From: an uncultured Candidatus Saccharibacteria bacterium
Lineage (GTDB): Bacteria > Patescibacteriota > Minisyncoccia > Minisyncoccales > RBG-13-42-11
NCBI GenBank assembly: GCA_964481125.1
Contig: CAYZSL010000001.1
Location: forward strand, 98,468 to 162,467
Direction: 5' to 3'
DNA length: 64,000 nucleotides
The notes beneath the pieces are model-generated. The model was not told where the DNA came from. It searched no databases and saw only the letters and a list, made by a program, of their open reading frames with translations. The stretch's first letter is position 1. Each line of letters starts with the position of its first letter. Position numbers and translations under genes: made by a program. Below, in pieces: positions 1,478-9,414 of this stretch.

Positions 1478-1515
1478 ATTTGATTTATTTTTTAATAATA
1501 ATGCGACCTTTATTT

Positions 1516-1524
1516 ATCTTACCA
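1516..1524 (-). promoter_or_regulatory. Extended -10-like box (TGGTAAGAT) preceded by a T6 tract
   Basis: The minus strand reads CGGTTTTTTGGTAAGAT about 38 nt upstream of the ATG at 1477. The same CGGTTTTTTGGTA[AG][AG]AT motif recurs at 2954-2962 and 3874-3882. Confidence 0.35.
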
Positions 1525-1564
1525 AAAAACCGACTGATTGGCGATTTCTCTAAAACCACAAAAA

Positions 1565-2023
1565 TTAAAATTCTTTATTAAAAATAACCTTATCTCCAAC
1601 TTCTAAACCAATCTTATCCGTTATTCCTCCGTTTAATTCTAAAACGTAACGCGTTTTAACGCCAGAATTAATAATAGAACAAGTATCGGAATTGCATGGT
1701 TGAGTATTTTTACTGATAAAAACTACTTCTTTGTCATTATTAATCCAGATTATATCCAAAGCTATTAAAGTGTTTTTCATCCAAAAAGAAGACTCTTCTC
1801 CGTTTTCAAAAATAAAAAGCATGCCCTTATCTGAATCCAAGCTTTCTCTAAACATCAAGCCTTGAGCTTGCTCTTGGGGGGTTATCGCCAACTCAACGAA
1901 AAAACAATTATCTTCAAAACAAACTTGATCTTGGTTTTCCGGACAAAAATAAAATAAAATTATTATAAATATTAATAATAAAATTGCAGATAAAAGAACA
2001 ATTATTAGGAATTCCTTTTTCAT
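1565..2023 (-). CDS. DUF192-family protein (membrane-anchored)
   Basis: 152 aa with an N-terminal TM segment. GLMFRESLDSDKGMLFIF...MKNTLIALDIIWIN...VLELNGG matches the DUF192/COG1430 pattern as I recall it. Confidence 0.6.
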   Translation of the reverse strand: MKKEFLIIVLLSAILLLIFIIILFYFCPENQDQVCFEDNCFFVELAITPQEQAQGLMFRESLDSDKGMLFIFENGEESSFWMKNTLIALDIIWINNDKEVVFISKNTQPCNSDTCSIINSGVKTRYVLELNGGITDKIGLEVGDKVIFNKEF

Positions 2024-2053
2024 TAAAATTATCCTATCAAAAAAAACGCCTTC

Positions 2054-2330: not shown

Positions 2331-2945
2331 TCACCACTTTATTAAAAATTCATGATATTCGTCACCTTTATAAACACACTTTGTTTCCTCACCTATTGCC
2401 TCTTTTCCAGTTATCACCTGGATTATACTGCAATAATATCCGGCTAGAAAATAACAGTACATGCGGGGCGAATTAATCGGATAAACAGGATAATCTTTAA
2501 GTCTGAGAACTGCGTATTTTTTTTCTTGACTGTATTCTGGCACCGTCAAATCTCCGACTGTAAAGTACATTCTGTGCATCCTTGAACTTGATTTGGCGGC
2601 CTTTTCAATAGAAATAAGATATTTTGCCCAAATCATTATAATATTAGGAAACTTGAAACAAAACCTTCCCATTTCTTGAAATTTTTGTTCATCATAATGG
2701 AAAAGTTCTATAAGAAGCGCAAAAGTAAGGATACTCCACCATAAAGGATAGAAAACCATTGCTTTTAGCTTTTCGTATTGGATCGGACAATCAAAACTTA
2801 ACATCGCTTCTTCTAGCCTCTTTAATCCTTCTTTTTTATTCTCCCGAAGAATGTATTTCCCGTAGTTCTTCAATGCCAATCCTCTTATCTCTCCCTGGAC
2901 ATTCATTATTTTTTCTAATTGTTTTTTTGATATTGTTGGTTCCAT
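2331..2945 (-). CDS. V4R-like (4-vinyl-reductase-type) domain protein
   Basis: 204 aa. The C-terminal YCYFLAGYYCSIIQVITGKEAIGEETKCVYKGDEYHEFLIKW resembles the V4R C..G....G...tG.....E..C...G...C.F pattern. Assigned from memory only. Confidence 0.45.
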   Translation of the reverse strand: MEPTISKKQLEKIMNVQGEIRGLALKNYGKYILRENKKEGLKRLEEAMLSFDCPIQYEKLKAMVFYPLWWSILTFALLIELFHYDEQKFQEMGRFCFKFPNIIMIWAKYLISIEKAAKSSSRMHRMYFTVGDLTVPEYSQEKKYAVLRLKDYPVYPINSPRMYCYFLAGYYCSIIQVITGKEAIGEETKCVYKGDEYHEFLIKW

Positions 2946-2953
2946 ATTGTCTT

Positions 2954-2962
2954 ATTCTACCA
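2954..2962 (-). promoter_or_regulatory. Extended -10 promoter box TGGTAGAAT, 8 nt upstream of the ATG (leaderless-type spacing)
   Basis: The minus strand reads TTTTTTGGTAGAATaagacaatATG. TGnTAnAAT fits an extended -10. Only 8 nt separate the hexamer from the start codon at 2945. Confidence 0.45.
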
Positions 2963-2987
2963 AAAAACCGCCCAAAACAATAGGCGG
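2962..2987 (-). terminator. Rho-independent terminator-like hairpin downstream of gene 3058-3867
   Basis: The minus strand reads CCGCC-tattgttttg-GGCGG followed by TTTTTT, 70 nt after the stop at 3058. Confidence 0.45.
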
Positions 2988-3057
2988 AAATTGGGGCTCC
3001 CCTGGTTGGACGATGTTAGAACCTGTTTTAGGTAGAAATTTAAAAGTGAAAATTACC

Positions 3058-3867
3058 CTATTTGAAATACAATTCTAAAATCTGTTTAATTTGTTTTTGC
3101 ACCTCTTCTGATTTAACGTCGTAATAAAAATTATCACCCAACGATTTCCCTTGTCTATCGGGAACAAAATACCTATAAATAAGTGTGGGTAAATCCCATT
3201 GGTCTTCTTCACTAGTATAGTCTTTATACCTTTTTTCTTTTAATTGTTCTGATGATAATTTTAAAATATCATTTAAAGCAACGATTATACTTTCTTTTTG
3301 AATTTCTGTTTCATATTGCAACTCAATACCTTTAAGATATTCCGTAACTGGATTAATAAATTTAAAAGTAGAAAGTATTCGGTTAGCTATTAAGTCATTA
3401 CCACTCACGGAAGAATAAAGGTAATAATAATTTTTCTTAAGAGGATCTTGTCCTAAATAATGGTAGGCTAAATTATTTGGTTTTGGGTCGTTGGTATAGC
3501 TAAATAAATAAATCATCCCATCTTCGTATTGAGGTTTTGAAGCCTCTTCTTTCAATTTACAGATAGTTTCTCCAGCATGAACTTCTGTTAAATTAAGTGG
3601 GCAGAAAACTAAATCTGGTTTAAGACTAAAAACGTTTTGCTCATACATCCAATCTTTAGGATATTTTATCTCAAATCTATACTCCTCATTCGTGTAAGTA
3701 TTCCAATCAGCAGTTTCATCTATGGGTTTCTCGGGAATAATCATCTCTGGTTGATTGGATAATTCTTCTTGAAAGCTGGAATACCGCCAATAAATAAATC
3801 CGCCAGCTAAAATGGCTGAGATTAATATAATACCTATAGCTATGGCTGTGGGTATTTTTTTATTCAT
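3058..3867 (-). CDS. Hypothetical membrane-anchored exported protein
   Basis: 269 aa with an N-terminal TM segment (IPTAIAIGIILISAILAGGFIYW). The motif WNTYTNEEYRFEIKYPKDW is paralogous to ORF 93-863. Confidence 0.6.
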   Translation of the reverse strand: MNKKIPTAIAIGIILISAILAGGFIYWRYSSFQEELSNQPEMIIPEKPIDETADWNTYTNEEYRFEIKYPKDWMYEQNVFSLKPDLVFCPLNLTEVHAGETICKLKEEASKPQYEDGMIYLFSYTNDPKPNNLAYHYLGQDPLKKNYYYLYSSVSGNDLIANRILSTFKFINPVTEYLKGIELQYETEIQKESIIVALNDILKLSSEQLKEKRYKDYTSEEDQWDLPTLIYRYFVPDRQGKSLGDNFYYDVKSEEVQKQIKQILELYFK

Positions 3868-3873
3868 TAACCT

Positions 3874-3882
3874 ATTCTACCA
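3874..3882 (-). promoter_or_regulatory. Extended -10 promoter box TGGTAGAAT, 6 nt upstream of the ATG (leaderless-type spacing)
   Basis: The minus strand reads CGGTTTTTTGGTAGAATaggttaATG. A 35-nt block (3873-3907) matches 2953-2987 at 31 of 35 positions. Confidence 0.45.
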
Positions 3883-3917
3883 AAAAACCGTCTGAAACAA
3901 TAGGTGGAATTTTCAGC

Positions 3918-4416: not shown

Positions 4417-5658
4417 TCAGTAGCCTTTCAGCTTTTTAAGAGAACCATGCTCCCTGATTCTTTCCAAAGCTTTAGCTTCAATCTGACGGATTCTCTCCCT
4501 GGTTACGCCAAACTCGTTTCCCACTTCTTCTAAAGTGTGGGTTACGCCGTCCTGCAAACCGAATCTCATTGCAAGGATTTTCTGTTCTCTTGGAGTTAAA
4601 TCAACCAAAATTTCTTTCAATCTTTCTTTTAATAAGGTTCTGCCCGCTTCCAAAGAGGGAGAAATTGACTTTTCGTCTTCAATAAACTCAGCTAAAACAG
4701 AGTCTTCTTCGTCTTCGCCAACAGGAGTTTCGAGAGAAACAGTATCCTGAGAGATTTTCATAATATGATAGACCTTTTCCAATTCAATACCCATTTCAGC
4801 TGCAATTTCTTCCGGCAAAGGTTCCCTGCCCAAATCCTGCAGCAGCCTTCTTCTTACCTGGGTGTATTTGGAAATCGTTTCCACCATATGAACCGGAATT
4901 CTGATGGTCCTTGCCTGATCAGCCAAGGCTCTGGTAATTGCCTGGCGAATCCACCAGGTAGCGTAAGTTGAAAACTTATAACCTCTTCTCCAGTCAAACT
5001 TTTCAACTGCCCGGAAAAGCCCCAAATTTCCTTCCTGAATCAAATCCAACAAAGTCAGATTAGGAGAACGACCAACATATCTTTTAGCAATGGAAACGAC
5101 CAATCTCAAATTAGCTTTGGCTAATTTTTTCTTTGCTTCAAGGTCACCTTTCTCTATCTTTTTTGCCAGTTCTTTTTCTTCGGCCGCTGTAACAAAGGAA
5201 AGTTTGCCTATCTCCTTCAAATACATTTGAATCGGGTCTATCCTGCTCTCGCTTGCTTTTGGTTTTTTAACTTTTTCTCCGATTGTAATCAATTCTTTGA
5301 CCTCCTGCACTTCGATCCCAGCCTTTTCAAAATCATCGTAAAGCCTTTCCAGCCCCTTTATATCCCTTTCTATTGCTGGAAAATAATAAAGGATTTCAGA
5401 ATAAGTGACGAATCCCCTTTCTTTTCCCTTTTCAAGAAGCTGCTGGAATTTTTCCTCAGTGAAAACCTTTTTCGGCCTGCCCAACTTTATCGTTATTCTT
5501 TTCTTTCTCTTCGCCTTTTTCCTTAACTTAACTCTGGCTTTCTTTTTAATTATTTTCTTGGATTTGGGCTTTTTCTTAGCAACAATCCTTTTCTTCTTTG
5601 GCGCTCTTTTCTTTTTAGCTGATCTTTTCTTCTTTTTTACTTTTTTTGATTTTGGCAT
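4417..5658 (-). CDS. rpoD: RNA polymerase sigma-70 factor RpoD with a polybasic N-terminal extension
   Basis: 413 aa. Region 2 ([38 protein letters not shown]), region 3 and region 4 ([24 protein letters not shown]) are present. The first ~65 aa are almost pure Lys/Arg. Lies downstream of dnaG as in the MMS operon. Confidence 0.95.
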
Positions 5659-8552
5659 TTTTGTTGAAGTATTTGGTTAAAGTCTTTGGTTAATTCCCCA
5701 ACTCTTTCCCAATTTTTTTCTTCTTCTGCCCTTTTAATTTCCTGGGATATCTGATCCAATTCGTTCTTGGCTTTTATCAGGACGGTTTCAGACAAGCAAT
5801 ACTGTATTTCAGATTCAATATCCTTTTCTTCGATTTCCTCTATTTCCGACTTTAAGGCAAGCTGATTGAATAATTCCGAATCGATCTTCAAACCATTTTT
5901 CATCTTTAGCATAATCTCCTTGATTTGGGGAGAGAAATCTTCCAGGCATTCGTCTTTGATAATTTCTATACTTTTTGGAAATTTTAAAAATAAGATGACC
6001 AATCTTTCTTCCAGAAGCTCATTTCTTGATTTTACGGGCAAATTCTTAATCTCCTCTGGCTCCATACCCAAATAATCAGAATATTCTTCCAGTTTGATTT
6101 TTTTCAATTCTTCTTCAATATTTTCTTCTTTTGTCTTAAGCCTCTTTGCCAGATCACTAATCCAATGAGACTGGACTATTCTATTGGAAATTCTTTTAAT
6201 GATCGGCAGCAATATTTTTGAAATTTCTTTTTTGCCTTCGGGAGTATCTTTGTCAAATTTTGAAAAAGCGCTTTCAAAATAGAAATCCATGATTGATTTT
6301 GCTTCCTTCGCCTTCTCTCCCCAAGCTTTCGGATCTTTAAAAATTAAGTCTGCCGGATCCAGGCCCTCTGGCAAAACAATAACTTTAACATCAAAACCGT
6401 GAAGCTGTGCCAGACCAATTCCCCTCTTGGTGGCTGCTTCCCCTGCTATATCCATATCAAAAGCAGTCAATAAATTATCAGAATACCTCTTTAAGGTTTT
6501 AAGCTGCAAAGGAGTCAAAGCAGTGCCTGAAGTAGCCACGACATTTTCAAAACCAGCCTGAGAAACCATTATTAAGTCAACGTAACCTTCCACTAAAATG
6601 CAGAAATCATTTTTCCGTATTTCCACTTTCGCTTTGTCCAAGCCGTAAAGAATGCGGCTTTTATCGTAAAGAATGGTCTGGGGAGTATTTACATATTTGG
6701 CGATTTCCTTTTTGTCTTTTTCCTTAAAAACCCGGCCACCAAATCCAACCACCTGAGAATTCAAATCAAAAATGGGAAATATAATCCTACCCCTGAATCT
6801 GTCGTAAAAAGAACCTTTTTCAGAAGACAAGCCTACCCCAGCTTTCTTAATTTCCTCCTGCGAATAATTCCTGGAACTCAAAAAATCAGCTAAGCCCTGC
6901 CAGACATCGGGCGCATAACCGACTCTCCACTTTTCCAAACTTTCCTTTGCAATGCCCCTATCTAAAAGGTACTGCTTAGCTTCCTTGCCTGTTTTGCTTT
7001 CTGCCAGCTGCTTTTCAAAGAATCTTGTTGCCAAATCGCAAATTTCGTAAAGACGCTCTCTTTCTGTTTGAAATTCTTTGTATTCTTTGGTTTGCCTTTT
7101 TAGTTCCACGCCCGCTCTCTGAGCAAGAATGCGCAAAGCGTCGCCAAACTCAACCCCTTCAATCTCTTTAACAAAGCCGAACATGTCCCCTCCCTTCCCA
7201 CAATTTCCAACTACAAAATTTGGAGTCATAAAAGAATGGTCCTTGGCAACAGTCAGATTATAAACATCTCCCTTAAAGGGTCTTTTTTTGATTTCTCTAA
7301 TTGGACATAACCAATATAAAACTTTACTTTTTTGGTCTTGATAGAATTGAGAGAAATTTAAGATATAATCCTCTTGCCAATGCACAGTGAAAGCTGTTTT
7401 GTGATGAACATCATTTTTGTCAATTTTTTCTTTTTCTACATAAAATCCAGGTGATTTGCCTAATCTTAATAAAATATCCCTTAATTGTTCAGCTAAAATT
7501 AATGAAATTGTAGTAATGGTTCTATATCTTCTATCTTTTTTACATTTTGCAACTTTACCGCTGAAACCGTCACCTCTATAAATTGCTTCTAAAATTATTC
7601 TCTGTTTTACTAAAGGAAGCTGTTGAAATTCAAAAGGGATATGTTTATTCTCAGCATGCAAACCACATAAATTTTCAAAAATATTTGACAACTTAGAATT
7701 GCACGCACTAACCTCTATCCCAGTTTTTTGCTCTTTTTTTCGCAAGTGAATTCCAGCTTTTATCCCAAAAATTTCCTTTATTAAATTTTTAATTTCTATG
7801 GCAAATTTCTTTTCGTGATTACCTAAACTAAATCTTATATAAGCTCGATGATTACTGCCTTCGGCAATATAATATCCGATTAATTTTAAAAATTTTTCAT
7901 CAACTTTTACAATAGTAGAAATTTCATTAATATCCGGACCGTAATTACTAACTCTCCTATTGTAATATTGATTTAAATTGATAACTTCTATGTCTTTTAC
8001 TTTTTGATCAATTGGGTAAAGTAGATAATCGTTTACAGAAAGACGATTTGCAGGCAATTTCTCTATTTTATATTTTAAATAAAACTGTGGACAATATTTT
8101 TTGTCACATCTCCATTGACAGATTCTTGTGTTACGACCTTTATAAGGACAATTTTTTGTCTTCATCACATATACTTCATGCTCGGCAGTTAAAGAAACAA
8201 TCTGATTTGACTTTCTTGTTTTAATATCAACCATCTCTCCTTTGTAAGGCCTCCAAAGGGTTCTAACTACCGGCATAAATCTTCCCCTATGAGTTAAAAC
8301 CATTTGCCCAACTCCGATATCTTCAATGTTATGAAATCCTTTTTCCGTTTTAATTAAAGATTTAGCCGGAAAACAACCAAAACAATGCCAAATCTGACGC
8401 GCAGGAGAAACAAAAAAAGAAGGTTTTTTCTCAGAATGAAAAGGACAGACAGCCCGATAATTGGCTCCTGCTTTTTGAAGCTTGATATAGCTGCCGATTA
8501 CCTCGATTATATCGAGCCTGCTCTTGATTTCATCAATAGGCGAAGAAATCAT
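5637..8552 (-). CDS. dnaG: DNA primase DnaG interrupted by an intein
   Basis: Zn-ribbon [18 protein letters not shown][intein][16 protein letters not shown] region ([39 protein letters not shown]). The start is set at the ATG at 8552 ([10 protein letters not shown]), 4 nt after the mscS stop; the ORF-track start at 8612 would overlap mscS. Overlaps rpoD by 22 nt. Confidence 0.9.
7203..8375 (-). mobile_element. Intein (391 aa) with a LAGLIDADG homing-endonuclease domain, inserted in the DnaG zinc ribbon
   Basis: Begins with Cys ([10 protein letters not shown]). Block B is [17 protein letters not shown] motifs are [12 protein letters not shown] and [10 protein letters not shown]. Ends [21 protein letters not shown] followed by a +1 Cys. 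Removing it restores the canonical [15 protein letters not shown]. Confidence 0.85.
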
Positions 8553-8556
8553 ATGC

Positions 8557-9414
8557 TTATTTTTTCCATTTATCCCTTGGCCAGACCGATATCTGCGGGA
8601 AAGGAATTTCAATGTTTTCTTTGTCGAAAGCGATCTTTAACCTTCTCCTGAATTCTCTCATTATATCCCACTGCTGGAAAGGCTTGGTATCGCCAAGCAA
8701 CTTAATTGATATGCCAGAATCGTCAAAACTATCGGGCCCAGTTCCCAAAACTTGAATAGGTTTGATAATGTTTTCCTTCCAAGGAGACTCTTCTGCCATA
8801 TTCTTGCCGACTTTATTTATTAAAGCTATCACTTTATCCAAATCTTCTTTATAAGCTACGCTGATATTCATATGGGCGCGGGAATAATCATGGGTCATAT
8901 TAGCTACCTTGCTGAAAGAACCGTTGGGAACATGATGGACTTTGCCGTCCAAATCCCTTAAAACAGTTTTCCTGATACTGATATCTTCAACTATGCCGCA
9001 AGTATTGTCCAGACAAATCACATCTCCTATCCTATATTGGTTTTCAAGGATTATAAAAAGGCCGGCCAAGAAATCCTTTATCATCCATTGGGCGCCAAAA
9101 CCCAAAGCCACTCCCAGAATTCCGGCTCCAGCCAGAATCGGACCGATATTCAAGCCCAGTTCGGAGATAATCATGATACCGGCAGCCAACCAGACAACAA
9201 CGCTCAAAATACCGTTAAGAATCCTGATTAAGGTCTTTTCCCTTTTGCTTTCAGCTGTTGCATCTTCACAATTCACCGCTTTCCTGACCGCTTTCTTGAT
9301 TAATTTTTTGACGAAGAAATTGATAAAATAAGCAACAATTAGAATCAAAACAATCTTAATTCCCTGGACCAAAAACCAACTTATTAAAATTTGAAGAATA
9401 TTTTGAAAAGTCAT
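8557..9414 (-). CDS. mscS: Small-conductance mechanosensitive channel (MscS family)
   Basis: 285 aa with three N-terminal TM segments. The MscS core is FIILENQYRIGDVICLDNTCGIVEDISIRKTVLRDLDGKVHHVPNGSF. Confidence 0.85.
   Translation of the reverse strand: MTFQNILQILISWFLVQGIKIVLILIVAYFINFFVKKLIKKAVRKAVNCEDATAESKREKTLIRILNGILSVVVWLAAGIMIISELGLNIGPILAGAGILGVALGFGAQWMIKDFLAGLFIILENQYRIGDVICLDNTCGIVEDISIRKTVLRDLDGKVHHVPNGSFSKVANMTHDYSRAHMNISVAYKEDLDKVIALINKVGKNMAEESPWKENIIKPIQVLGTGPDSFDDSGISIKLLGDTKPFQQWDIMREFRRRLKIAFDKENIEIPFPQISVWPRDKWKK

Follow-up and report, generated by a model that had tools for sequence, protein, structure and literature searches.

A LAGLIDADG intein family inside the CHC2 zinc ribbon of the bacterial primase DnaG

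How can a chromosomal primase work with 391 extra residues inside its zinc-binding domain, and how did these residues get there? The question is raised by the dnaG gene of a candidate-phyla-radiation bacterium, found in the window, the whole stretch of 64,000 nt analysed here, to which all coordinates refer. The gene spans 5640..8552 on the minus strand, as do all of its parts described below. Based on the list of open reading frames and on Pfam, it encodes a precursor of 971 codons, most likely starting at the ATG at 8552 and followed by a stop codon at 5637..5639. Pfam matches above the cut-offs to Zn_ribbon_DnaG, DNAG_N, Toprim_2, Toprim_4, Toprim and DnaB_bind reveal the CHC2 zinc ribbon, RNA polymerase core, Toprim domain and DnaB-binding domain of a bacterial DnaG primase. 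The gene rpoD (4417..5658) lies directly downstream, and the order NUDIX-dnaG-rpoD is also found in sister genomes. The window holds a single dnaG, with neither a second copy nor a further intein of the DnaG-site family elsewhere in it. A scan for promoters and terminators yielded nothing above the background of AT-rich DNA.

The insert comprises 1173 nt (7203..8375), corresponding to 391 codons in frame and free of stops, and splits dnaG between WHCFG and CGKGG. The DNA reads CAG ATT TGG CAT TGT TTT GGT / TGT TTT CCG GCT at the upstream junction (QIWHCFG / CFPA) and GTA GTT GGA AAT / TGT GGG AAG GGA GGG at the downstream junction (VVGN / CGKGG). The insert (CFPAK...FVVGN) begins with Cys1 (8373..8375) and ends with Asn391 (7203..7205), and the next codon, at 7200..7202, encodes Cys+1, the first residue of the C-extein and the putative splice nucleophile. 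The original prediction, a 391-residue insertion starting with Cys after WHCFG and ending with VVGN before another Cys, is exact on this reading of the DNA. Moreover, precisely this segment is missing, base for base, from the sister alleles L081 and L084.

The N-extein (residues 1-59, 8376..8552), identified by translation, contains three zinc ligands of the CHC2 ribbon, namely Cys36 and His39 in the CPFH motif (8436..8447) and Cys57 in the CFG motif (8376..8384). Cys57 is located at position -3 relative to the intein Cys1, and the Pfam match to the CHC2 zinc finger ends at the intein junction. The remainder of the C-extein (5640..7199) holds the end of the zinc-binding domain, the RNA polymerase core, the Toprim domain and the DnaB-binding domain as assigned by Pfam, and shares 97-98% identity with the intein-free primases P0022 and P0023. 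Removal of the intein in silico gives a primase of 580 residues, equal in length to these two proteins and 97-98% identical to them, and their genes and the spliced DNA are collinear (94.2-94.8% identity) and differ by no indel. The spliced zinc-binding domain aligns with the solved DnaG domain 1D0Q (E 1.1e-30) and with 2AU3, in both cases without a gap along the N-extein and across the junction. In both structures the final Cys of HCFGCG is the counterpart of Cys+1, which would become Cys60 once the primase is mature, supporting the predicted role of this nucleophile as the fourth zinc ligand after splicing. A literature search on the residue numbering of 1D0Q retrieved nothing, and we identify the ligands from the CHC2 family of Pfam, from the 1D0Q alignment and from Pan and Wigley 2000, who reportedly assigned Cys40, His43, Cys61 and Cys64 to the zinc. 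The further proposal that Cys1 mimics this ligand holds at the level of the sequence only, in which the precursor still reads CFGC.

To judge which residues of the intein are conserved, we compared the window intein with 77 loci (L001-L077) inspected at no less than 37% identity, all 77 of which occupy the same CFG|C site; together they form the set of 78 inteins used below. Block A (8337..8375) carries the nucleophile Cys1, and block B (8166..8204) carries the TxxH motif with Thr63 and His66; each of these three residues is kept in 78/78 members, and so is Cys+1. Block F (7227..7271) has Asn373 at position F:4, where the family shows Asn in 71 and Asp in 7 members, and His380, the block F His, which is present in 77 of the 78. 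Block G (7203..7220, NFVVGN) ends with the penultimate Gly390 and the terminal Asn391, the latter invariant in the set. Between blocks B and F lies a LAGLIDADG homing endonuclease domain (approximately residues 150-320, 7416..7928), recognised by Pfam LAGLIDADG_3 with 9.5e-10, above the curated cut-off, and by its fold. Both of its motifs are present as predicted: motif 1 (7854..7889) with the catalytic Glu172 and motif 2 (7566..7595) with the catalytic Asp269, making it a single-chain enzyme of the two-motif type. Both acidic residues are kept in all 78 inteins, although for Glu172 this is in part an outcome of the locus search, the pattern of which covered motif 1.

The predicted structure agrees with this assignment. 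The AlphaFold model of the intein has a pLDDT of 85.5 and a pTM of 0.86, and a Foldseek search with it retrieved solved intein-endonucleases, the best being the TliVMA intein (E 7.6e-21), together with PI-SceI, PI-PkoII and PI-PfuI. The homing endonucleases I-DmoI and I-SceI were matched as well, I-DmoI over the endonuclease part. These matches suggest a Hint fold for the splicing part, and the matches to I-DmoI, I-SceI and PI-SceI, in addition to Pfam, identify the alpha-beta-beta-alpha-beta-beta-alpha fold of LAGLIDADG enzymes. By sequence, PI-PkoII (2CW7) is matched at 1.4e-6, and the Pfam families Intein_splicing, Hint and Hint_2 match the intein below their cut-offs. The matches to the LAGLIDADG motif and to inteins are far beyond chance. 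Sequence marks and predicted fold together support a LAGLIDADG intein placed after the Gly of the CFGC knuckle and before its second Cys.

The intein has the features of class 1: a host protein that can be restored, Cys1, Cys+1, TxxH and a C-terminal Asn at G:7. Class 2 inteins lack the nucleophile at residue 1 and class 3 inteins use Cys at F:4 as the branch nucleophile (PMC4031507); neither description fits, as Cys1 is present and F:4 is Asn. Two usual helper residues are absent, with Gly390 at G:6 instead of His and Asn373 at F:4 instead of the usual Asp (PMC4031507). These helpers are usual and not strictly required, and about 5% of working inteins do without the penultimate His (PMC4031507), hence their loss does not bar membership of class 1. 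The penultimate Gly noted at the outset is real and is a trait of the whole family, in which this position is G in 38, A in 22, S in 15, K in 2, N in 1 and never His. Among other inteins the penultimate residue is Ala in Ssp DnaE and Gly in Chlamydomonas ClpP. The latter is reported to have spliced in E. coli only after a change of the Gly to His (Wang and Liu 1997), and the two non-canonical helper positions do count against splicing in the present case.

We weighed what the mechanism would have to be. It is very probable, in our view, that the insert is a class 1 intein with a two-motif LAGLIDADG endonuclease in the primase CHC2 ribbon, which splices in the standard way and has homed recently. 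In this cycle, a thioester would form between Cys1 and Gly-1 (Gly59) and would be attacked by Cys+1, resulting in a branched intermediate. Cyclisation of Asn391 would free the intein, and an S-to-N shift would join the exteins to HCFG-CGKGG. The DnaG-site family would carry out these steps without the penultimate His and mostly with Asn in place of Asp at F:4. The freed intein would then cut intein-free dnaG at CFG|CG, and repair would copy the intein into the broken allele, a route by which the window copy was probably gained recently. We infer protein splicing from the purifying selection described below and from the essential, single-copy nature of the host gene; cleavage of the target is likewise deduced from the sequences.

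Because the fourth native ligand would enter the CxxC knuckle only after splicing, the zinc-binding domain is expected to be non-native in the precursor. With a structural zinc site cut in two by the intein, this precursor may contain a zinc trap. A conditional splicing switch, in which zinc capture or a CxxC disulfide blocks splicing, is compatible with standard splicing and homing, and we consider it unlikely. Cys36, His39 and Cys57, candidate ligands already present in the precursor sequence, could bind zinc with Cys1 or Cys+1 as a partner, or else Cys57 (position -3) could form a disulfide with Cys1. Similar cases have been described. In the MoaA intein of Pyrococcus abyssi, splicing is blocked when Cys1 is disulfide-bonded to a Cys of the N-extein (Callahan 2011, as summarised in PMC10663303), and zinc is a reversible inhibitor of inteins, including the mycobacterial DnaB intein in vivo (Mills and Paulus 2001; Woods 2020; both as summarised in PMC10663303). 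Similar to MoaA, the primase has an N-extein Cys near Cys1, here at -3, and similar to the zinc-sensitive DnaB intein of Mycobacterium smegmatis, the host is a replication protein, with zinc ligands here adjoining both nucleophiles. Unlike in those inteins, the neighbouring Cys and His residues belong to the structural zinc site of the host and are not a chance or engineered pair, as far as can be read from the primary sequence. In the precursor model both extein halves are predicted to fold (pLDDT 75-92), and the arrangement C57-F-G-C1 recurs throughout the family, with the Cys at -3 and Cys1 kept in 78/78. However, it is the primase that fixes Cys57, Phe and Gly, which makes their conservation uninformative on a switch, and any intein at CFG|C would show the same arrangement by accident. 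If the switch were true, the supply of mature primase, and with it the priming of replication, would follow the metal or redox state. The stronger proposal that the three-ligand trap and the Cys(-3)-x-x-Cys1 pair gate primase maturation by zinc or redox, with the four-cysteine insert and the family-wide loss of both helper residues (His at G:6, Asp at F:4) as possible adaptations to the metal site, appears quite improbable.

Is the endonuclease still in use? The intein might be competent in splicing and carry an inactive endonuclease, as a vertically inherited passenger in late decay, with the patterns at the junction left by ordinary recombination or by selection on the exteins. Relatives that have lost parts of the enzyme show that decay does occur in the family, as P0015 lacks motif 2 and P0036 is altered just after motif 1. 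The selection on the domain argues against it. The dN/dS ratio is 0.11-0.12 for the whole intein and 0.07-0.13 for the endonuclease domain, as low as for the splicing blocks, and 0.02-0.06 for the exteins. The endonuclease domain is therefore under purifying selection, with dN/dS about 0.1, and the invariant Glu172 and Asp269 speak against inactivity as well.

Signs of lateral transfer are also hard to reconcile with a vertical passenger. Compared to the closest intein-bearing allele, L085, the window intein shows 92% DNA identity and a dS of 0.31, whereas the exteins show 78-86% identity and a dS of 1.0-1.75. From locus to locus, the identity of the intein does not follow that of the exteins (63-65% versus 38% in Omnitrophota, for instance), and hosts with such discordant identities span Patescibacteria and Omnitrophota. 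At the same time, empty sites are found in close sisters: the genome around the locus is collinear with L081 at 91-96%, sister genomes with the empty site are approximately 91-96% identical in DNA across the locus, and their empty alleles are about 94% identical. The GC content at third codon positions is 21.5% in the intein and 36-39% in the exteins. Low GC by itself was rejected as proof of foreign origin: among stretches of the same size in the window, 11% reach values this low, which makes the low GC of the intein unexceptional.

The DNA directly after the junction bears a further mark. Over 42 nt (7161..7202), mismatches cluster, amounting to 16/42 against L081 and 9/42 against L084, compared to 4-5% over the 258 nt that follow (binomial P 3e-9 and 4e-4, respectively). 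The differences include changes of all three bases of a codon, such as GGG to TCA or TCT. In addition, a tract of 62 nt from the junction is identical in L081 and L086, although these genes are 15% diverged. We propose that this mosaic patch is probably part of the endonuclease target and of a conversion tract. Simple co-conversion from an L085-like donor is not supported, as the patch differs from L085 by 21%, about as much as the rest of the gene, and is no closer than the rest. No donor for the patch was identified, a point in favour of an inactive endonuclease, and the variant patch CSVGGGIFDF did not appear in metagenome scans with exact or degenerate patterns. Given the lack of a donor and the ordinary distance to L085, the mosaic may reflect escape or conversion in the empty alleles instead of co-conversion into the window allele. 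The consensus of dnaG DNA at empty sites reads CATTGTTTTGGT|TGTGGNAARGGNGGNGA. In protein terms the site occurs as the consensus CGKGGD, as CSKGSD in L084 and as CSVGGGIFDF in L081 and L086, and there are also alleles with CFGGC.

Taken together, the purifying selection, the intein dS below that of its host and the mosaic patch point to recent homing. The window copy looks active and recently acquired, and the active homing endonuclease suggested originally is supported indirectly by the conserved acidic residues, the dN/dS of about 0.1 and the signs of recent lateral transfer, so that we regard a decayed endonuclease as very unlikely. That the insert does not splice at all, being kept as an extra primase domain or marking dnaG as a pseudogene, is extremely improbable despite the penultimate Gly and the Asn at F:4, which depart from the canonical catalytic set: the 391 residues would part the fourth zinc ligand from the other three, all residues required for splicing are kept in 78/78, the frame is intact with extein dN/dS at the low values given above, the gene is the sole dnaG in the window and sits in the dnaG-rpoD arrangement, and the known minority of working inteins also dispenses with the penultimate His (PMC4031507).

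An additional element follows block B, a four-cysteine insert with the spacing Cys76-x9-Cys86-x3-Cys90-x4-Cys95 (8091..8150). All four Cys are kept in the 39 of 39 DnaG-site inteins that bear it (38 loci and the window), and the remaining 39 of the 78 have a basic, cysteine-poor insert (0-1 Cys) at that position. A similar cluster is found in 43 of 131 more distant inteins. The insert has a pLDDT below 50 in the models of both the intein and the precursor. We regard it as a candidate zinc knuckle or DNA-recognition module; our search found no published description of a recurrent four-cysteine insert after block B.

How widespread is the element? Relatives of the DnaG intein are carried by 148 species-level genomes, all of them represented by metagenome-assembled sequences, and the hosts of L001-L077 are mostly Patescibacteria and Omnitrophota. 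A survey of dnaG in related genomes, as proposed with the original prediction, turned up both empty and occupied sites; of the 120 nearest primase clusters, only 6 carry the intein. Such patchy occupancy is typical of a mobile element. In cultured phages no relative was found in a primase; matches occurred in polymerase, portal protein, ribonucleotide reductases and methylases. DnaG had been taken for an uncommon intein host. Such rarity is not supported by the 148 genomes, nor by the ranking in Novikova et al. 2016 (PMC4760082), which places DnaG among the top 15 intein-containing bacterial proteins with 14 inteins in Actinobacteria and Proteobacteria. The window intein thus belongs to a known kind, as DnaG is already listed as a host. 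To the extent of that ranking, the two groups share the host family (COG0358, DNA primase) and differ in their hosts, here Patescibacteria and Omnitrophota.

Structural comparison places the intein next to PI-SceI of yeast VMA1, TliVMA, PhoVMA, PI-PkoII and PI-PfuI, with which it shares the predicted Hint fold and an endonuclease between blocks B and F. Similar to solved class 1 inteins, it has two acidic LAGLIDADG motifs, Cys1 and a terminal Asn followed by Cys. It differs from them in its low identity (12-17%), the missing penultimate His, the Asn at F:4 and the host site, and in the four-cysteine insert, for which a sequence search retrieved no related solved structure. As in other His-less inteins (PMC4031507), G:6 is not His and G:7 is Asn; unlike in those, the trait is fixed across a family of at least 78 members and combined with mostly Asn at F:4. 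The nearest relatives outside DnaG are a DnaE (Pol III alpha) intein in Persephonella (L078) and two SufB inteins (L079 and L080), at 27-31% full-length identity, with hosts assigned from reading the flanking sequence. L078 shares the four-cysteine insert, and all three differ in keeping His-Asn and in residing in other host proteins. Inteins in P0165, P0166 and P0231 are likewise inserted at CFG|C, within the second zinc knuckle, and are about 30-34% identical; they differ in that the hosts are short or divergent primase-like proteins with CHC2 and Toprim, and two of the three keep the penultimate His.

The DnaG-site intein is predicted to work like ordinary inteins, and the general view of intein function is unchanged by it. 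It represents a large family for which our literature search found no description, either of a DnaG CFG|C intein family or of primase inteins in Patescibacteria (CPR), in a host protein already known to carry inteins. For annotation, many primase genes of Patescibacteria and Omnitrophota have about 390 surplus codons; labels such as hypothetical, 'LAGLIDADG endonuclease' or 'CHC2 zinc finger protein' are frequent in their records, with contigs often breaking there, and recognition of the intein corrects these records. The family offers a natural collection of at least 78 inteins whose splicing has to manage with no penultimate His and, in most cases, with Asn at F:4. Pairs of alleles with and without the intein, about 94% identical in DNA and mosaic at the target site, are well suited to the study of the homing cycle and of escape at the target site. 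The insertion inside a metal site makes control of a replication protein by zinc or redox directly testable. If such gating were true, replication priming would be under this control in small-genome bacteria, mostly Patescibacteria and also Omnitrophota.

The insert, CFPAK...FVVGN, occupies 8375..7203 on the minus strand (1173 nt, 391 codons), its limits being fixed by the codons at both junctions. Read on the minus strand, the DNA is TGG CAT TGT TTT GGT / TGT TTT CCG at the upstream junction and GTT GGA AAT / TGT GGG AAG at the downstream one, where the Cys+1 codon lies at 7200..7202 (-). The coordinates and residues of the original prediction were thus exact. The listed dnaG ORF spans 5637..8612 (-), and the ATG at 8552 is most likely the true start, since the insert-free length then equals that of the orthologues. 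The primase around the insert is complete, with the CHC2 zinc ribbon, DNAG_N, Toprim and DnaB_bind domains in Pfam, and the zinc-ribbon match is interrupted at the intein junction. Removal of the insert in silico yields a primase of 580 aa, whose residues 1-100 align with the solved zinc-binding domains 1D0Q (1.1e-30) and 2AU3 without a gap across HCFG-CGxGG. From the Pfam family, this alignment and, in part, the ligands reported for 1D0Q, we take the CHC2 ribbon ligands to be Cys36 and His39 (CPFH) and Cys57 and Cys60 (CFGC). Cys60 is the +1 residue of the intein, and therefore the predicted identity of the +1 nucleophile with the fourth zinc ligand stands.

This dnaG is the housekeeping primase gene; rpoD directly follows it, and no second dnaG was found in the 64-kb window. 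An MscS-type mechanosensitive channel gene (8557..9414, -) lies between a NUDIX gene and dnaG. It is missing at the intein-free sister locus L081, otherwise collinear and 91-96% identical, and at the intein-bearing locus L085, in both of which NUDIX abuts dnaG. Two further segments, 1514..2040 and 2367..3915, have no counterpart in the L081 genome, and the ORFs in them resemble small proteins, membrane-bound or secreted, with no assigned function.

Within the insert, LAGLIDADG_3 passes the Pfam cut-off, and the matches to Intein_splicing, Hint and Hint_2 fall short of theirs. An AlphaFold model of the intein, based on ten family members, has a pLDDT of 85.5 and a pTM of 0.86. By structure it comes closest to the homing-endonuclease inteins TliVMA (E 7.6e-21), PI-SceI, PI-PkoII, PhoVMA and PI-PfuI; its endonuclease part is also similar to I-DmoI, and by sequence the endonuclease domain matches PI-PkoII (1.4e-6). 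All the splicing marks are there: Cys1, TxxH (Thr63 and His66), block F His380, the terminal Asn391 and Cys+1. Judged by its sequence, the insert falls into class 1 as PMC4031507 defines it, because Cys1 is present and position 4 of block F is not Cys. Of the features that define a class 1 LAGLIDADG intein, all those open to testing here are found, apart from two non-essential helper residues, namely Asn373 for Asp at block F position 4 and, as predicted, Gly390 for the usual penultimate His of block G. Inteins without the penultimate His make up about 5% of working ones, and restoring it may help or harm (PMC4031507). Therefore, Gly at this position is unusual and not disqualifying for splicing.

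The protein search with the intein retrieved 19 relatives, each of them adjoining CHC2 zinc-ribbon sequence, and a scan limited to a single genome for every species detected relatives in 148 genomes, from which 80 loci were kept. In 77 of 77 loci (L001-L077, 37-81% identical) the intein lies at one place, ...CFG/C...N/CG...; their hosts are many Patescibacteria lineages and Omnitrophota, some organism names being taken from record titles only. The other three loci hold more distant inteins (27-31%) that keep His-Asn, and the flanks read as DnaE for L078 and SufB for L079 and L080. HMMER, run over all 1.84 billion representatives, returned 92 proteins at E <= 1e-30 and 5655 at E <= 1e-3; in about 25 clusters the intein starts at residue 58-61 of proteins of about 1000 aa, which is the DnaG site. 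Three divergent primase-like proteins with CHC2 and Toprim (P0165, P0166, P0231) carry inteins about 30-34% identical at the same CFG/C point, two of the three keeping His-Asn. In the occupied alleles L024, L025, L032, P0036 and P0095 one extra residue precedes the intein (CFGG/C or CFGS/C), and their zinc knuckle would be CxxxC, not CxxC, once spliced. The 3308-aa protein P0158 probably carries many inteins, since nine separate stretches match. Most database intein-bearing primases (P0001-P0019) end at contig ends near the intein, where assemblies seem to break, and go under the names hypothetical, 'LAGLIDADG endonuclease' or 'CHC2 zinc finger protein'.

Among the 78 DnaG-site inteins (L001-L077 and the window copy), Cys1, Thr63, His66, Glu172, Asp269, Asn391 and Cys+1 are invariant, the invariance of Glu172 being partly imposed by a locus search pattern that spans motif 1. 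The penultimate residue is G in 38, A in 22, S in 15, K in 2 and N in 1; block F position 4 is Asn in 71 and Asp in 7. Both catalytic acidic residues are kept in all 78. The endonuclease domain has a dN/dS of 0.07-0.13 in the four pairs, out of five, that allowed dS to be estimated, as low as the splicing blocks, which fits an enzyme still under selection. That purifying selection acts on the whole family, in a host gene that is essential and single-copy, argues for splicing.

Directly after block B, the window intein has a four-cysteine insert (8091..8150, -; Cys76, Cys86, Cys90 and Cys95, C-x9-C-x3-C-x4-C). All four cysteines are kept in the 39 of 39 DnaG-site inteins with this insert; the remaining 39 of the 78 have a basic, cysteine-poor insert (0-1 Cys) there, and P0004 has none whatever. 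Of 131 more distant LAGLIDADG inteins in other hosts, 43 have a similar cluster, often ...CKPTC.... Carriers are L001-L037, L068, L074, L078 and some of P0142-P0286. The insert is poorly modelled by AlphaFold, the sequence search found no solved counterpart, and the literature search no paper describing it. Our guess is a candidate zinc knuckle aiding DNA recognition.

A survey of dnaG in relatives found both occupied sites (L001-L077) and empty ones. The primases closest to the spliced product, P0022 (98%) and P0023 (97%, GCA_016782605.1), are both of 580 aa and intein-free, and only 6 of the 120 nearest primase clusters bear the intein. At the DNA level, the spliced window gene is collinear with both empty alleles (94.2% and 94.8%) without an indel, and the genome around dnaG is collinear with L081 at 91-96%. 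In the closest intein-bearing allele, L085, the intein DNA is 92% identical to that of the window (dS 0.31), whereas the exteins are only 78-86% identical (dS 1.0-1.75). Intein and extein identities are decoupled across loci, for example 67 vs 41%, 66 vs 37% and, in Omnitrophota, 63-65 vs 38%. The exteins have a GC3 of 36-39% and the intein one of 21.5%; in this window, though, low GC by itself is not exceptional. Taken together, the empty sister alleles, the dS contrast, the decoupled identities and GC3 show, at the sequence level, that the DnaG-site intein moves between lineages and arrived recently in that of the window.

The target site itself is a mosaic. In the first 42 nt after the junction, the spliced window gene differs from the empty alleles L081 and L084 at 16 and 9 positions (binomial P 3e-9 and 4e-4), against 4-5% in the following 258 nt and 1-4% upstream. 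Whole codons are replaced, e.g. GGG by TCA, and conserved residues are altered, the window version giving way to CSKGSDMFGF or CSVGGGIFDF in the empty alleles. Between these two alleles the difference is 40% within the patch and 3% outside it. The variant patch CSVGGGIFDFVMKI has identical DNA in two genomes, L081 and L086, that are 15% apart over the primase gene as a whole; their longest identical run, 62 nt, starts at the junction (rough P about 0.009). The patch is no nearer L085 than the remainder of the gene is, and simple co-conversion from a donor like L085 is therefore unsupported. We read the mosaic as the outcome of breaks repeatedly repaired and converted at the site that the endonuclease targets, to which a spread of resistant sites may have added. 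CFGCG beside the zinc ligand, normally fixed, varies in this clade: among 114 intein-free primases nearest the window (surveyed in P0022-P0141 and at L081, L084, L086 and L087), 55 have CFGCG, 38 have CFGC followed by S/Q/N/T and 21 have CFGGC with an extra Gly. Gly is at +2 in 69 of the 78 occupied alleles; as the samples were not matched by phylogeny, this contrast is only suggestive.

Splicing would most likely follow the standard class 1 pathway, with the steps described in PMC4031507. The zinc ribbon would then fold or be completed with Cys+1 as the fourth ligand, and the freed endonuclease would home into empty dnaG alleles. C57-F-G-C1 is retained in the precursor, so that a Cys sits at -3 relative to Cys1, close to the two remaining zinc ligands, and both extein halves are folded in the precursor model (pLDDT 75-92). 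As PMC10663303 describes, the Pyrococcus abyssi MoaA intein is blocked by a disulfide between an N-extein Cys and Cys1, and several inteins are inhibited by zinc, that of mycobacterial DnaB even in vivo. Given the Cys at -3 and, by analogy, these precedents, primase maturation might plausibly be gated by zinc or redox state. The primase alone accounts for the residue conservation.

The original prediction did not count DnaG among the common intein hosts, and PMC4760082 speaks otherwise: DnaG ranks in the top 15 of bacterial proteins that bear inteins, 14 being listed from Actinobacteria and Proteobacteria. The literature search found no paper on the CFG/C site of DnaG or on inteins of Patescibacteria primases, and no cultured phage was found to carry a DnaG-site intein. 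The DnaG-site inteins form a well-populated and apparently undescribed allele family with some variant traits.
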